64,000 bases of DNA. Source: Escherichia coli 042 (GTDB taxonomy: Bacteria; Pseudomonadota; Gammaproteobacteria; Enterobacterales; Enterobacteriaceae). Numbering within the stretch: the first letter of the stretch is position 1; the number at the start of each line of letters is the position of its first letter. This document shows, piece by piece, positions 10,707-19,940 of the stretch. The stretch lies in assembly GCF_000027125.1 (NCBI RefSeq), contig NC_017626.1, one strand, 5' to 3'. The position numbers and the translations under genes were made by a program. Under the pieces are notes generated by a model, which ran no database searches, was not told the origin of the DNA, and saw only the letters and a list, made by a program, of their open reading frames with translations.

Positions 10707-11147
10707 TTATTCGCTGTATTCTTCCTGGGTAATCAGTGTTTCTTTTGGTGGGTTTATTCCGGCATCACGAATATTCTTCTGCACCGCTACTGCACCAAAC
10801 AAGCTTAAGAAGAAAGCCAGTCCATAAAAACCTTTCTCGCTGAGTAATAACGTCGCATTCCACAGACCTACCATCAGTAACGCAACAGAGATAATAAAGA
10901 CAGTCAGGCAGGTCATATAATAAATGGAGGTGGTCGGTATGCCTTCATACTTGTCCCGAACGGTCTTTTGATAAGACGCCGCAGAAAACAGTCCTAATAC
11001 CAGTACGGCAAAATAATATCCTTTTTCATTTAACTGCATCTCTGCATTCCATAGCCCTAACAGATAGGTAACGATACCACCAACGAGAGCTATCCATGAC
11101 ACAATACTGAATGCCGGAGAATAGGTTGATATTTTGTTGTCCATCAC
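10707..11147 (-). CDS. yiaA: Inner membrane protein YiaA
   Basis: ~145 aa, two repeated YiaAB-type transmembrane halves; start may be the second Met. Confidence 0.85.
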
Positions 11148-11698: not shown

Positions 11699-13153
11699 TT
11701 ACGCCATTAATGGCAGAAGTTGCTGATAGAGGCGACGGAACGTTTCACGTCGTGGCTGATAAGCGGCATAACGCTGCGCATCTGGTAGATGCGACTGTTC
11801 TAACGGCAGTTGCGGCAACAACTCAATGAGCGATTTCTCTGGATTCGCCGCAATCTGCGCCAGCCTTGCTGCGCCCAGAGCTGGCCCCACATCCCCCCCC
11901 GTGCGGTAATCGAGTTGCTGACCGCTGATATCCGCCAGCATCTGACGCCAGTACTCACTACGCGCCCCGCCACCAATCAACGTAACACTTTGCGGTTTAA
12001 TGCCGCAGCCATGCACGACATCCATGCCATCTGCCAGCGCATAACCCACACCTTCCAGCACTGCTCGCGCCAATTCATTGGGGCCATGTTGATGAGTCAA
12101 ACCAAAGAACCCCCCCTTCGCCTGGGGATTATTGTGTGGTGTACGCTCGCCGGAAAGATAAGGCAGAAACCAAACTGGCTCGGCACTTTCATCAGCCTGT
12201 TGAGCAGCCGCGATTAAAGCTGGGACATTGTTCAGGCCCGTTAATTTCGCAGCCCAATCCAGACACGACGCTGCACTCAGCATCACAGACATTAAATGCC
12301 AACGCTGCGGTAGCGCATGGCAAAAGCTGTGTACGGCGCTTTCTGGCTTGCTTAAGAACCCTTCGCTGACAGCAAAATAGACTCCCGACGTCCCCAGCGA
12401 TAACATTGCCTGATTAGCATCAACCATTCCTACACCAACCGCACCAGCTGCATTATCACCACCGCCTGCGACAACTGGCACCGCCGCCATACCCCACGCT
12501 TTCGCAACTTCAGGTAGCAAAGCACCAGTAATTTCGCTGCCTTCGTATAATGCGGGCATCTGGTCACGAGATAAGTGGCAAGCCTGCAGCATGTCGTCAC
12601 TCCAGTCACGCTTTGCGACATCCAGCCACATGGTGCCAGCTGCGTCAGACATATCGCTGGCAAACTCCCCCGTCATACGCAGACGCAAGTAATCTTTCGG
12701 TAACAATACTTTGTCGATTTGACGGAATATCTCCGGCTCATGCCGCTGCACCCATAGCAATTTAGGCGCAGTAAATCCGGGCATCATCAGGTTACCGGTA
12801 ATCACCCGCGATTGCGGAACTCGCGCTTCCAGCAAAGCGCACTCTTGCGCACAGCGCCCGTCGTTCCACAAAATGGCAGGGCGTAATAACCGTTGCTGGG
12901 CATCCAGTAAGGTTGCACCGTGCATCTGGCCGGCAATACCCAATGCTTTAACGTCCTGCAGAGAATGCTGATCGCCCAGGGCTTTCATTGCGCGATCAGT
13001 TGCCTGCCACCACTGTTCCGGGTCTTGTTCCGACCAGAGTGGATGCGGGCGCGAAACGGTCAGCTTTTCCGTTTGCGAAGCAACCACCTCACCCTGCTCG
13101 TTGAGCAAAATAACTTTTACGCCCGAGGTGCCAAGATCTATCCCGATATACAT
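11699..13153 (-). CDS. xylB: Xylulokinase
   Basis: 484 aa MYIGIDLGTSGVKVILLNEQGEVVA...; FGGY carbohydrate kinase. Confidence 0.97.
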   Translation of the reverse strand: MYIGIDLGTSGVKVILLNEQGEVVASQTEKLTVSRPHPLWSEQDPEQWWQATDRAMKALGDQHSLQDVKALGIAGQMHGATLLDAQQRLLRPAILWNDGRCAQECALLEARVPQSRVITGNLMMPGFTAPKLLWVQRHEPEIFRQIDKVLLPKDYLRLRMTGEFASDMSDAAGTMWLDVAKRDWSDDMLQACHLSRDQMPALYEGSEITGALLPEVAKAWGMAAVPVVAGGGDNAAGAVGVGMVDANQAMLSLGTSGVYFAVSEGFLSKPESAVHSFCHALPQRWHLMSVMLSAASCLDWAAKLTGLNNVPALIAAAQQADESAEPVWFLPYLSGERTPHNNPQAKGGFFGLTHQHGPNELARAVLEGVGYALADGMDVVHGCGIKPQSVTLIGGGARSEYWRQMLADISGQQLDYRTGGDVGPALGAARLAQIAANPEKSLIELLPQLPLEQSHLPDAQRYAAYQPRRETFRRLYQQLLPLMA

Positions 13154-13224
13154 ATCGATCGTTCCTTAAAAAAATGCCCGGTATCGCTACCGATAACCGG
13201 GCCAACGGACTGCACAGTTAGCCG

Positions 13225-14547
13225 TTATTTGTCGAACAGATAATGATTTACCAGATTTTCCAGTTGCTCCTGGCGACCACTCTGATGCACCGGAGACAAA
13301 TTGTGTTCCTGAGCATATTTGGCTAAATCTGCCAGTGACATTTGGCCTTTCAGGATTTGCTGGCCTAATTCGCTATTCCAGCCGGAATAACGCTGCGCGA
13401 TGCGTTTATCCAGCTCGCCATCTTCAATCATGCGTGCTGCAATTTTCAGCGCCAACGCCATCGTATCCATCGCGCCGATATGACCGTAAAACAGATCATA
13501 TTTATCAGTACTTTGACGACGTACTTTGGCATCGAAGTTCAGACCGCCGGTGGTGAAACCGCCTGCTTTGAGAATTTCATACATCACCAACGCATTCTCT
13601 TCCACACTGTTCGGGAACTGGTCGGTGTCCCAGCCCAGTTGTGCATCGCCACGGTTAGCGTCGACAGAACCGAACAGGCCAAGCGCAATGGCGGTGGCTA
13701 TTTCATGATGGAAAGAGTGACCTGCCAGCGTCGCGTGGTTAGCTTCAATGTTCAGTTTAATCTCTTTTTCCAGACCAAACTGTTTCAGGAAGCCATACAC
13801 CGTCGCAGCATCGTAATCATATTGATGTTTAGTCGGTTCTTGCGGTTTCGGTTCGATAAGCAACGTACCCTGGAAGCCGATTTTATGTTTATGCTCAACC
13901 ACCATTTGCATAAAGCGGCCCAGCTGTTCACGCTCCTGACGCAAGTCGGTATTTAACAACGTTTCGTAACCTTCACGACCGCCCCACAGGACATAGTTTT
14001 CACCGCCCAATTTATGGGTTGCTTCCATCGCTGTAACAACTTGCGTTGCCGCCCAGCTGAAGACTTCTGGATCTGGGTTCGTCGCCGCACCCGCGCCGTA
14101 GCGAGGGTTTGTAAAGCAGTTAGCGGTTCCCCACAGCAGCTTCACGCCGCTCTCTTCTTGCTTGCCTGCCAGGACATCAACCATTTGCGCAAAATTATTG
14201 ATGTACTCTTTTAACGACGCGCCCTCAGGGGAAACATCCACATCGTGGAAGCAATAAAATGGCACATGTAACTTGTGGAAAAACTCAAATGCGACATCTG
14301 CTTTACGCTTCGCCAACGCCAGTGCCTCACCAGGCTGCTGCCACGGACGATTAAACGCCCCCACACCAAACATGTCCGCCCCGTTCCAGCAGAAGGTGTG
14401 CCAGTAGCAGGCGGCAAAACGCAAGTGCTCTTCCATACGCTTGCCCAACACCAGTTCGTCGGGATTATAGTGATGGAATGCTAACGGGTTAGAGGATTTT
14501 GAGCCTTCATAACGAACGCGATCGAGCTGGTCAAAATAGGCTTGCAT
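13225..14547 (-). CDS. xylA: Xylose isomerase
   Basis: 440 aa from [31 protein letters not shown]; track ORF begins 4 codons upstream. Confidence 0.97.
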
Positions 14548-14912: not shown

Positions 14913-15905
14913 ATGAAAATAAAGAACATTCTACTCACCCTTTGCACCTCACTTCTGCTTACCAACGTTGCGGCACACGCCAAAGAAGTCAAAATAGGTA
15001 TGGCGATTGATGATCTCCGTCTTGAACGCTGGCAAAAAGATCGAGATATTTTTGTGAAAAAGGCAGAATCTCTCGGCGCGAAAGTATTTGTACAGTCTGC
15101 AAATGGCAATGAAGAAACACAAATGTCGCAGATTGAAAACATGATTAACCGGGGCGTCGATGTTCTTGTCATTATTCCGTATAACGGTCAGGTATTAAGT
15201 AACGTTGTAAAAGAAGCCAAACAAGAAGGTATTAAAGTATTAGCTTACGACCGTATGATTAACGATGCGGATATCGATTTTTATATTTCTTTCGATAACG
15301 AAAAAGTCGGTGAACTGCAGGCAAAAGCCCTGGTCGATATTGTTCCGCAAGGTAATTACTTCCTGATGGGCGGCTCGCCGGTAGATAACAACGCCAAGCT
15401 GTTCCGCGCCGGGCAAATGAAAGTGTTAAAACCTTACGTTGATTCCGGAAAAATTAAAGTCGTTGGTGACCAATGGGTTGATGGCTGGTTACCGGAAAAC
15501 GCATTGAAAATTATGGAAAACGCGCTAACCGCCAATAATAACAAAATTGATGCTGTAGTTGCCTCAAACGATGCCACCGCAGGTGGGGCAATTCAGGCAT
15601 TAAGTGCGCAAGGTTTATCAGGGAAAGTAGCAATTTCCGGCCAGGATGCGGATCTCGCAGGTATTAAACGTATTGCTGCCGGTACGCAAACTATGACGGT
15701 GTATAAACCTATTACATTGTTGGCAAATACTGCCGCAGAAATTGCCGTTGAGTTGGGCAATGGTCAGGAACCAAAAGCAGATACCACTCTGAATAATGGT
15801 CTGAAAGATGTTCCCTCCCGCCTGCTGACACCGATCGATGTGAATAAAAACAACATCAAAGAAACGGTAGTTAAAGACGGATTCCACAAAGAGAGCGAGC
15901 TGTAA
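14913..15905 (+). CDS. xylF: D-xylose ABC transporter periplasmic binding protein
   Basis: 330 aa from MKIKNILLTLCTSLLLTNVAAHA (signal peptide); track ORF over-extended by 26 codons. Confidence 0.96.
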   Translation: MKIKNILLTLCTSLLLTNVAAHAKEVKIGMAIDDLRLERWQKDRDIFVKKAESLGAKVFVQSANGNEETQMSQIENMINRGVDVLVIIPYNGQVLSNVVKEAKQEGIKVLAYDRMINDADIDFYISFDNEKVGELQAKALVDIVPQGNYFLMGGSPVDNNAKLFRAGQMKVLKPYVDSGKIKVVGDQWVDGWLPENALKIMENALTANNNKIDAVVASNDATAGGAIQALSAQGLSGKVAISGQDADLAGIKRIAAGTQTMTVYKPITLLANTAAEIAVELGNGQEPKADTTLNNGLKDVPSRLLTPIDVNKNNIKETVVKDGFHKESEL

Positions 15906-15982
15906 GCGTTACGCCCCGGCGAGGAGCGGGGGCGTGATTTCTCTCCATGCCGCGTGAATGAATTGGCTTAGGTGGAGTCGTT

Positions 15983-17524
15983 ATGCCTTATCTACTTGAA
16001 ATGAAGAACATTACCAAAACCTTCGGCAGTGTGAAGGCGATTGATAACGTCAGCTTGCGGTTGAATGCTGGCGAAATCGTCTCACTCTGTGGGGAAAATG
16101 GGTCTGGTAAATCAACGCTGATGAAAGTGCTGTGTGGTATTTATCCCCATGGTTCCTACGAAGGCGAAATTATTTTTGCGGGAGAAGAGATTCAGGCGAG
16201 TCACATCCGCGATACCGAACGCAAAGGTATCGCCATTATTCACCAGGAATTGGCCCTGGTGAAAGAATTGACTGTGCTGGAAAATATCTTCCTGGGTAAC
16301 GAAATAACCCACAATGGCATTATGGATTATGACCTGATGACACTACGCTGTCAGAAGCTGCTCGCACAGGTCAGTTTATCCATTTCACCCGATACCCGCG
16401 TTGGCGATTTAGGGCTTGGGCAACAACAACTGGTTGAAATTGCCAAGGCACTTAATAAACAGGTGCGTTTGTTAATTCTCGATGAACCGACAGCCTCATT
16501 AACTGAGCAGGAAACGTCGGTTTTACTGGATATTATTCGCGATCTACAACAGCACGGTATCGCCTGTATTTATATTTCGCACAAACTCAACGAAGTCAAA
16601 GCGATTTCCGATACGATTTGCGTTATTCGCGACGGTCAGCACATTGGTACGCGTGATGCTGCCGGAATGAGTGAAGACGATATTATCACCATGATGGTCG
16701 GGCGAGAGTTAACCGCGCTTTACCCTAATGAACCACATACCACCGGAGATGAAATATTACGTATTGAACATCTGACGGCATGGCATCCGGTTAATCGTCA
16801 TATTAAACGAGTTAATGATGTCTCGTTTTCCCTGAAACGTGGCGAAATACTGGGTATTGCCGGACTCGTTGGTGCCGGACGTACCGAGACCATTCAGTGC
16901 CTGTTTGGCGTGTGGCCCGGACAATGGGAAGGAAAAATTTATATTGATGGCAAACAGGTAGATATTCGTAACTGTCAGCAAGCCATCGCCCAGGGGATTG
17001 CGATGGTCCCCGAAGACAGAAAGCGCGACGGCATCGTTCCGGTAATGGCGGTTGGTAAAAATATTACCCTCGCCGCACTCAATAAATTTACCGGCGGTAT
17101 TAGCCAGCTTGATGACGCGGCAGAGCAAAAATGTATTCTGGAATCAATCCAGCAACTCAAAGTTAAAACGTCGTCCCCCGACCTTGCTATTGGACGTTTG
17201 AGCGGCGGTAATCAGCAAAAAGCGATCCTCGCTCGCTGCCTGTTACTCAACCCGCGCATTCTCATTCTTGATGAGCCTACCAGGGGTATCGATATTGGCG
17301 CGAAATACGAGATCTACAAATTAATTAACCAACTCGTCCAGCAGGGTATTGCCGTTATTGTCATCTCTTCCGAATTACCTGAAGTGCTCGGCCTTAGCGA
17401 TCGTGTACTGGTGATGCATGAAGGGAAACTAAAAGCCAACCTGATAAATCATAACCTGACTCAGGAGCAGGTGATGGAAGCCGCATTGAGGAGCGAACAT
17501 CATGTCGAAAAGCAATCCGTCTGA
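15983..17524 (+). CDS. xylG: D-xylose ABC transporter ATP-binding protein (duplicated ABC domains)
   Basis: 513 aa with two Walker A motifs ([18 protein letters not shown]) and LSGGNQQK signature. Confidence 0.96.
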
Positions 17525-18683
17525 AGTGAAATTGGCCGTACCGACATCCGGTGGCTTTTCCGGGCTGAAGTCACTGAATTTGCAGGTCTTCGTGATGATT
17601 GCAGCTATCATCGCAATCATGCTGTTCTTTACCTGGACCACCGATGGTGCCTACTTAAGCGCCCGTAACGTCTCCAACCTGTTACGCCAGACAGCGATTA
17701 CCGGCATCCTCGCAGTAGGAATGGTGTTCGTCATAATTTCTGCTGAAATCGACCTTTCCGTCGGCTCAATGATGGGGCTGTTAGGTGGCGTCGCGGCGAT
17801 TTGTGACGTCTGGTTAGGCTGGCCTTTGCCACTGACCATCATTGTAACGCTGGTTCTGGGACTGCTTCTCGGTGCCTGGAACGGATGGTGGGTAGCGTAC
17901 CGCAAAGTCCCTTCATTTATTGTCACCCTCGCGGGCATGTTGGCATTTCGCGGCATACTCATTGGCATCACCAACGGCACGACTGTATCTCCCACCAGCG
18001 CCGCGATGTCACAAATTGGGCAAAGCTATCTACCCGCCAGCACCGGCTTCATCATTGGCGCGCTTGGCTTAATGGCTTTTGTTGGCTGGCAATGGCGCGG
18101 AAGAATGCGCCGTCAGGCTTTGGGTTTGCAGTCTCCGGCCTCTACCGCAGTTGTCGGTCGCCAGTCATTAACGGCGATTATCGTCTTAGGCGCAATCTGG
18201 CTGTTGAACGATTACCGTGGCGTTCCCACTCCCGTTCTGCTGCTGACGTTGCTGTTACTCGGCGGAATGTTTATGGCAACGCGGACGGCATTTGGACGAC
18301 GCATTTATGCCATCGGCGGCAATCTGGAAGCAGCACGTCTCTCCGGGATTAACGTTGAACGCACCAAACTTGCCGTATTCGCTATTAACGGATTAATGGT
18401 CGCTATCGCCGGATTAATCCTCAGTTCTCGACTTGGCGCTGGTTCACCTTCTGCGGGAAATATCGCCGAACTGGACGCAATTGCAGCATGCGTGATTGGC
18501 GGCACCAGTCTGGCAGGCGGCGTCGGGAGCGTGGCTGGAGCGGTAATGGGGGCATTCATCATGGCTTCACTGGATAACGGTATGAGTATGATGGATGTAC
18601 CGACCTTCTGGCAGTATATCGTTAAAGGTGCGATTCTGTTGCTGGCAGTATGGATGGACTCCGCAACCAAACGCCGTTCTTGA
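17502..18683 (+). CDS. xylH: D-xylose ABC transporter permease
   Basis: 393 aa polytopic permease; overlaps xylG end by 23 bp. Confidence 0.95.
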
Positions 18684-18760
18684 TTTTGATAAAAATTTTC
18701 TCAAAGCCGGTAACGTATTACCGGTTTTGAGTTTTTGCATGATTCAGCAGGAAAAGAACC

Positions 18761-19940
18761 ATGTTTACTAAACGTCACCGCATCACATTACTGTTCAATG
18801 CCAATAAAGCCTATGACCGGCAGGTAGTAGAAGGCGTAGGGGAATATTTACAGGCGTCACAATCGGAATGGGATATTTTCATTGAAGAATGATTTCCGCG
18901 CCCGCATTGATAAAATCAAGGACTGGTTGGGAGATGGCGTCATTGCCGACTTCGACGACAAACAGATCGAGCAAGCTCTGGCTGATGTCCACGTCCCTAT
19001 TGTTGGGGTTGGCGGCTCGTATCACCTTGCAGAAAGTTACCCACCCGTTCATTACATTGCCACCGATAACTATGCGCTGGTTGAAAGCGCATTTTTGCAT
19101 TTAAAAGAGAAAGGCGTTAACCGCTTTGCTTTTTATGGTCTTCCGGAATCAAGCGGCAAACGTTGGGCCACTGAACGCGAATATGCATTTCGTCAGCTTG
19201 TCGCCGAAGAAAAGTATCGCGGAGTGGTTTATCAGGGGTTAGAAACCGCGCCAGAGAACTGGCAACACGCGCAAAATCGGCTGGCAGACTGGCTACAAAC
19301 GCTGCCACCGCAAACCGGGATTATTGCCGTTACTGACGCCCGGGCGCGGCATATTCTGCAAGTATGTGAACATCTACACATTCCCGTACCGGAAAAATTA
19401 TGCGTGATTGGCATCGATAACGAAGAACTGACCCGCTATCTGTCGCGTGTCGCCCTTTCTTCGGTCGCTCAGGGCGCACGGCAAATGGGCTATCAGGCGG
19501 CAAAACTGTTGCATCGATTATTAGATAAAGAAGAAATGCCGCTACAGCGGATTTTGGTCCCACCAGTTCGCGTCATTGAACGGCGCTCAACAGATTACCG
19601 CTCGCTGACCGATCCCGCCGTTATTCAGGCCATGCATTACATTCGTAATCACGCCTGTAAAGGGATTAAAGTGGATCAGGTACTGGATGCGGTGGGCATA
19701 TCACGCTCCAATCTTGAGAAGCGTTTTAAAGAAGAGGTGGGTGAAACCATCCATGCCATGATTCATGCCGAGAAGCTGGAGAAAGCGCGCAGTCTGCTGA
19801 TTTCAACCACCTTGTCGATCAATGAGATATCGCAAATGTGCGGTTATCCATCGCTGCAATATTTCTACTCTGTTTTTAAAAAAGCATATGACACGACGCC
19901 AAAAGAGTATCGCGATGTAAATAGCGAGGTCATGTTGTAG
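18761..19940 (+). pseudogene. xylR: xylR (AraC-family xylose activator) interrupted by an apparent +1 frameshift after codon 43
   Basis: ATG 18761 opens MFTKRHRITLLFNANKAYDRQVVEGVGEYLQASQSEWDIFIEE then hits TGA at 18890-18892; the rest of XylR (DFRARIDKIKDWLGDGV... to ML*) continues in another frame from 18891 to 19940. Sequence reads gaagaaTgatttccgc where gaagaagatttccgc would restore the recalled protein. Confidence 0.7.

Follow-up and report, generated by a model that had tools for sequence, protein, structure and literature searches.

A frameshifting one-base insertion in xylR recurs on different Escherichia coli backgrounds and points to a probable mutational hotspot

Both xyl operons have been described as requiring XylR for their activation (Song & Park 1997, cited in PMC12795559). 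The genes of this regulon are damaged in Shigella: S. flexneri 6 carries an xylH frameshift in PG-1 and an xylR truncation in PG-2, while S. sonnei carries a deletion of xylFGH-xylR (PMC8767353, PMC12795559). In E. coli, mutational hotspots are known to arise by template switching at quasi-palindromes, and the characterised hotspots of this kind have repeats of ~18 bp (PMC7202029). Here, we analysed a stretch of 64,000 nucleotides of E. coli DNA (the window), in which xylR is interrupted by one extra T. Overall, we consider it probable that this is a real, heritable, loss-of-function insertion that has been regained repeatedly at a site-specific mutational hotspot.

The xylR lesion and the rest of the xyl locus

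The window was aligned base by base with Ecol_316 (NZ_CP018957), whose xylR (1179 bp) is the closest intact copy, and the sole difference within the gene was a gap opposite 18890 (Table 1). The original prediction had placed a frame break at codon 43/44, with the frame from ATG 18761 ending at TGA 18890-18892 and the remainder continuing from 18891, and had counted one base too many relative to the intact protein. The ORF listing and translations agreed with the former, and the proposed comparison with a reference xylR, which lacks the T, confirmed the latter. The local sequence reads ...CATTGAAGAA-T-GATTTCCGC..., where T is 18890; since the bases beside it are A and G, the insertion position is unambiguous and, as had been noted, not homopolymeric. 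The two xylR pieces of the window matched residues 1-43 and 44-392 of Ecol_316 XylR exactly. Among 5426 complete RefSeq E. coli genomes there was no 100% xylR match, and the best matches spanned 1179 of the window's 1180 bases. The extra T also makes an ATG at 18889-18891, which heads a putative out-of-frame ORF of 71 codons (18889-19104, + strand); the wild type has no start codon there.

Table 1. Coordinates of xyl-locus features in the window
Feature	Position	Strand	Remark
xylB	11699-13153	-	open, annotated length
xylA	13225-14547	-	open, annotated length
xylB + xylA, XylR-dependent catabolic operon	11699-14547	-	both intact
xylF	14913-15905	+	open, annotated length
xylG	15983-17524	+	open, annotated length
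xylH	17502-18683	+	open, annotated length
xylF, xylG, xylH, XylR-dependent ABC transporter operon	14913-18683	+	all intact
xylR	18761-19940	+	1180 bp instead of 1179, one extra T
5' xylR ORF, MFTKRH...WDIFIEE-stop	18761-18892	+	43 codons + TGA; from ORF listing and translation
Perfect 5-bp inverted repeat, TCATT-GAAG-AATGA	18879-18892		present only with the T; from sequence
352-aa ORF, TTG start 18882, MKNDFRAR...	18882-19940	+	gene-caller version of the 3' part of xylR
Inserted T, xylR c.129_130insT	18890	+	between codon 43 (GAA) and codon 44 (GAT); from alignment to intact xylR
TGA made by the extra T	18890-18892	+	directly after codon 43
Rest of xylR, codons 44-392 + stop, DFRARIDK...SEVML-stop	18891-19940	+	349 aa + stop, displaced to next frame

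With the T removed, the protein was identical to the annotated XylR of Ecol_316 and matched PDB 4FE4/4FE7, 'Xylose operon regulatory protein', over residues 1-392 (E 7e-266), giving full-length identity to the characterised E. coli XylR with its AraC-type DNA-binding domain and LacI/GalR-type sugar-binding domain. Its identity rests on this PDB match and the RefSeq annotation because a search with NCBIfam profiles returned AraC-family domain matches and no XylR-specific model above cut-off. The genomic context, downstream of xylFGH and with divergent xylAB, is likewise that of xylR. In the window, the two domains do not lie in one uninterrupted frame, a TGA standing after codon 43, and the gene as encoded is, judged from its sequence, an xylR pseudogene rather than a functional member.

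The 43-aa product matched PF22177, and its residues 1-43 fall within the N-terminal PBP1_XylR domain. With a stop after 43 of 392 residues, the main frame would contain neither the remaining part of the sugar-binding domain nor the AraC-type DNA-binding domain. As both xyl operons depend on XylR for activation, poor xylose induction is predicted, and little or no induction of xylAB and xylFGH would be expected in the window strain. These two operons are themselves intact, as originally predicted, all five frames being open.

Over 12.9 kb (9761 to ~22710), the window differed from Ecol_316 by 5 SNPs and the T. From ~22711 onwards, covering the 3' part of malS, avtA and beyond, the two diverged sharply, with ~130 differences in the next 6 kb, and for window 20000-44000 the best complete genome was just 98.9% identical. 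The sequence suggests that ~22711 is a recombination boundary and that the chromosome is a mosaic with few close counterparts among complete genomes. Elsewhere, yiaA (10707-11147, - strand) is an open 146-codon ORF in the window, whereas the annotation of Ecol_316 gives its copy (L001 947-1384) as a pseudogene interrupted by an internal stop, probably due to a C/T SNP at window 11049. In the xylR-bax interval, KTE51-type haplotypes (L009, L002-L004) have an 89-bp insertion (…GCCTTATCCGACCTAC…) at window 19977/19978 that the window and Ecol_316 lack; from its sequence, it looks like a REP element with a presence/absence polymorphism.

Carriers and haplotype backgrounds

Three metagenome scaffolds of the window's own clone, independently assembled (L005, L020 and L021), carried the same T with 0 SNPs over 7.9 kb. 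Over 21 kb, L020 differed from the window by 1 SNP, with indels absent, and L021 showed 6 changes. With the T at its centre, a 40-bp query can seed only in T-bearing genomes. It found the same T in 3 of the 5426 complete RefSeq E. coli genomes, namely N10, N25 and 23CRST038 (NZ_CM165902, NZ_CM165897 and NZ_AP045810), in all of which PGAP labels xylR 'frameshifted'; it was absent from the other 5423. In a collection of 15 billion proteins, the exact 43-aa product was on record from 320 contigs, some of them possibly wild-type partials at contig ends. The 352-aa product was on record from 165 contigs as an Asp variant (P0016) and from 71 contigs as the window's His variant (P0017). Carrier contigs were counted from this frameshift-specific ORF (165 + 71), and the resulting figure of at least 236 is a safe lower bound because its MKND... 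start requires the T. Among JGI metagenome contigs, the mutant 30-mer gave 0 matches and the wild-type 29-mer at least 80 loci, a denominator too small or uncertain for an allele at ~0.05%.

The original prediction had offered a real mutation and a base-calling error as alternatives. An artefact of sequencing, base-calling or assembly in the window would be in keeping with single-base indels being the commonest assembly error, and with the extra, error-like homopolymer indels of a close relative from the NCTC collection (L010). However, the T lies outside any homopolymer, the public T-bearing contigs come from different technologies, samples, platforms and pipelines and carry the identical base, the T is passed on within lineages but missing from near-identical twins, and L020 has a single SNP and zero indels against the window over 21 kb. 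These points make an artefact very improbable. A base-calling error is effectively excluded by the independent assemblies with the identical T, and a real mutation is supported by the clone-mate assemblies, the three 'frameshifted' RefSeq genomes and the hundreds of public contigs. L010 (LR134238.1, an NCTC genome and clone-mate of the window) has two further homopolymer indels at window-equivalent 19694 and 21069, GGG>GG inside xylR, which splits the gene again, and T6>T7 upstream of malS; unlike the +T, these look like long-read assembly errors.

Recurrence was measured by haplotype backgrounds, since raw contig counts are inflated by clonal expansion and by contig-end partial proteins. Comparison of ~70 carrier contigs over the 7.9-kb xylF-malS region revealed at least nine carrier haplotypes in E. 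coli and Shigella, 17-180 SNPs apart, with the identical T in each. The same T thus recurs on different backgrounds. Some carriers were Shigella or Shigella-sized genomes, and neighbouring genes, xylAB and xylFGH included, were intact in every carrier examined. N10, N25, 23CRST038 and KTE51 formed one T-carrying lineage made up of isolates from different laboratories and countries, and in this KTE51-type lineage the T has been inherited across a cerebrospinal fluid isolate, an Ecuador faeces isolate and a metagenome.

The carriers showed three flanking-marker combinations at 18712 and 18929 and fell into three local haplogroups, with just 215-346 bp around the T in common between them. Between haplogroups, identity ran for 177-308 bp on the left side of the T and for 38-74 bp on its right side, compared with 386-3167 bp within groups, and the interval 18582-18928 held just one variable site among carriers. 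The strict minimum is three origins, or one origin with crossovers within tens of bases.

All seven haplotypes searched (7/7) had many intact twins among complete genomes (7899/7900 bases, ~100% identity), which, apart from the T, had no more than one or two SNPs relative to the carriers across 7.9 kb. The twins were Ecol_316 for the window haplotype, Combat2C1 and F11 for L008, 50579417 and YDC107 for L011, 2016C-3878 and CREC-544 for L017, EcE.CRE.COL for L009/KTE51, D7 for L016 and 13TMH22 for L006. Since these twins differ essentially by the T alone, the T was gained recently, within each clone. The nine gains could each be a separate mutation, or some could be mutations and others short-tract imports that brought no markers along. 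We infer independent mutation rather than import, because donors are rare (~0.05% of complete genomes) and because, if selection acted for loss of xylR, null alleles of every kind should be favoured, whereas early frameshifts other than +T are hardly ever found.

Origin of the recurrent insertion

As a baseline, the predicted products of other early xylR frameshifts were looked up in the same protein collection. Against at least 236 contigs for +T at 18890, there were 6 contigs on record (7 examined) for +G in the G4 run, and for the T4 run 1 contig with an added T and 2 contigs with a T lost. No contig was on record for an extra A in the A4 run, for +A, +C or +G at the 18890 junction, or for -A at 18881. 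Six of the seven +G contigs came from assemblies with every neighbouring gene shredded, which indicates uncorrected long-read error and leaves one credible +G case; the nearby homopolymer frameshifts had at most one or two credible occurrences each. Whether contigs or independent backgrounds are counted, +T at this non-repeat site is far more frequent than frameshifts at the classic slippage sites. The identical change was present in nine or more backgrounds and three or more local haplogroups, as expected of a hotspot, and 18890 is on balance probably a mutational hotspot. A phase-variable locus based on a simple-sequence repeat was considered and rejected, as there is no run at the T and the nearby homopolymers are almost without natural frameshift alleles.

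The assemblies L027-L032 (GCA_019430985 to GCA_019431125, and GCA_009741655), in which all xyl-region genes are broken into short ORFs, held nearly all of the +G records, and such error-riddled assemblies would contaminate any pseudogene survey. Many public contigs end in the first 29-50 codons of wild-type xylR (29, 30, 32-36, 41, 44, 48 and 50 aa, each on at most 171 contigs). Assemblies may break often in these codons, and such breaks could arise from strain-mixture bubbles or nearby repeats.

The wild-type sequence around the site, TCATT-GAAG-AA-GA, is a quasi-palindrome with one unpaired A, and the T raises its complementarity to a perfect repeat (Table 1). A replication template switch at this small quasi-palindrome would 'correct' it to TCATT-GAAG-AATGA, and this is the sole mechanism found that predicts both the exact base and the position, which suggests a role for it. 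The repeat does not exceed chance, however: a stem of 5 bp or more would result from 6.6% of all single-base insertions in xylR (p about 0.07), and the hairpin (-2.1 kcal/mol) is no better than shuffles (z about 1.1), in contrast to the ~18 bp of known cases. The reciprocal quasi-palindrome product (-A at 18881) was not found in the protein collection. In Salmonella, the arm is broken (TTATTGAGGAA|GA) and the equivalent product is absent from the collection despite very many genomes, a natural control that is mildly supportive; in Citrobacter, the arm is intact and no +T allele occurred among few genomes. GC skew places the xylR coding strand on the lagging strand, but strand bias does not settle the mechanism because the leading or lagging assignment of +T depends on whether the switch is intra- or intermolecular. 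Overall, template switching is a tentative explanation for the hotspot, possible but less probable than the hotspot itself.

Other templates were tried and rejected. A search of the window for an ectopic template of the mutant sequence returned only the site itself and one chance match with 3 mismatches. The larger quasi-palindrome GGATATTTTC/GAAGATTTCC, based on wild-type folding, would template substitutions rather than +T. The direct repeat GAATG 21 bp upstream carries no weight, as such 5-mers are expected by chance.

Recurrence could also reflect one or a few origins followed by spread of the T through short-tract homologous recombination, perhaps aided by selection for silencing of the xylose regulon. 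The single variable site among carriers in 18582-18928 would allow this, as would traceless tracts of up to ~215-350 bp between haplogroups and up to 0.4-3 kb within them; haplogroup II and III carriers share 386-3167 bp around the T, and some of the nine gains could be undetectable imports. Convergent loss of xylose utilisation in Shigella (PMC8767353, PMC12795559), together with the Shigella or Shigella-sized carriers, would fit a role for selection. Nevertheless, donors are rare (3 of 5426 complete genomes). If loss were selected, new mutations at any position in xylR would be expected in far greater numbers than imports of a single uncommon allele, whereas other early frameshifts are nearly absent and only 18 of the 5426 genomes lack a single-piece match covering at least 80% of xylR. 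Furthermore, no hitch-hiking SNP relative to the intact twin was present in 7 of 7 backgrounds tested, and import into at least three haplogroups would still require crossovers as close as 38-74 bp on one side. Spread by recombination is therefore rather unlikely. Under the preferred reading of repeated mutation, +T would be gained at the tips of unrelated E. coli/Shigella lineages, and the loss-of-function allele would be weakly deleterious or near-neutral.

A different possibility is that the allele is not null and so escapes purifying selection, either by reinitiation at TTG 18882, yielding XylR without residues 1-41, or by reassembly of the 43-aa and 352-aa products. The TTG lies 8 nt upstream of the new TGA in the correct frame, making it a candidate start for termination-reinitiation, +T persists in clades while other nearby frameshifts are almost never seen, and xylAB and xylFGH are intact in all carriers examined. 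Yet with residues 1-43 inside the N-terminal PBP1_XylR domain, the truncated protein would be unlikely to fold, a TTG with a mere GGA-type Shine-Dalgarno predicts little reinitiation, and recent gains would leave the operons intact just as well. Tolerance alone would also leave repeated origin at a non-repeat site unexplained, and a functional split gene appears quite improbable. The UGA stop exactly at the frame junction might instead call to mind a prfB-like programmed +1 ribosomal frameshift that restores full-length XylR. By the prfB rules (general knowledge and PMC12421855), however, GAA in the P site cannot re-pair with AAU in the +1 frame, and there is no Shine-Dalgarno-like stimulator 3 nt upstream. 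GAA-UGA-U, present in 3 of 5426 genomes, thus has neither the slippery codon, the stimulator nor the conservation of the prfB type; the arrangement is absent from 99.9% of E. coli, from Salmonella and from Citrobacter, so it is not a conserved recoding site, and we give programmed frameshifting almost no credence. A bolder version of the hotspot reading holds that the site is a sequence-intrinsic non-repeat hotspot, with a rate above that of 4-nt homopolymer slippage by one to two orders of magnitude, acting as a recurrent and conceivably reversible off-switch of the xylose regulon, or else that termination-reinitiation lets the split gene supply a regulator, functional or altered, and so accounts for the persistence of the allele in clades. 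We regard this version as unlikely.

Significance and comparison with known systems

The +T lesion is already present in public genomes, where it is annotated 'frameshifted', and a literature search found no description of a recurrent xylR +T site. Its recurrence is a new example of a pseudogenising mutational hotspot, with an unusually clean population signal. An identical non-repeat insertion across E. coli phylogroups offers an unusually clean natural example of site-specific mutational bias, and xylR +T provides a directly testable case for the role of tiny quasi-palindromes, or of another process, in wild pseudogene formation. The window genome, predicted to be xylose-uninducible despite complete xyl structural genes, matters for metabolic inference from gene presence, and shared frameshifts call for caution as markers of common descent.

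The nearest counterparts are the xylR pseudogenes of N10, N25 and 23CRST038, which have the same T at the same position in the same 1180-bp gene. They differ from the window in their xylR/xylH haplotype, xylR itself having 15 SNPs and residue 77 being Asp where the window has His, and belong to the KTE51-type lineage rather than the window's clone. Another natural inactivation of xylR was found in E. coli strain 2-1 (NZ_CP097198, L026 4319-5626), where IS1203 (IS3 family) interrupts the gene at about codon 106 while the +T site is wild type. This insertion, on the haplotype of carrier L006, differs in position and mechanism and was seen once; a link between IS activity and the +T site was rejected, as the IS1203 position is unrelated.

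Like the pseudogenisation of the xyl regulon in Shigella, +T points to losses of xylose regulation or uptake that occurred repeatedly and independently within the E. coli/Shigella complex. The Shigella lesions vary by lineage, comprising frameshifts, truncations and a 22-kb deletion, whereas +T is one identical insertion that recurs and is also found in commensal and extra-intestinal E. coli with intact xyl structural genes. With the quasi-palindrome hotspots (the Ripley 1982 model, E. coli thyA, and lacZ QP5/QP6), +T shares a non-repeat frameshift that perfects an imperfect inverted repeat, and a Ripley-type model predicts both the base and the position of the xylR insertion. Compared with those characterised cases, the xylR arms are 5 bp rather than ~18 bp, priming homology would be only about 2 nt, the hairpin is statistically ordinary and the reciprocal product was not seen.
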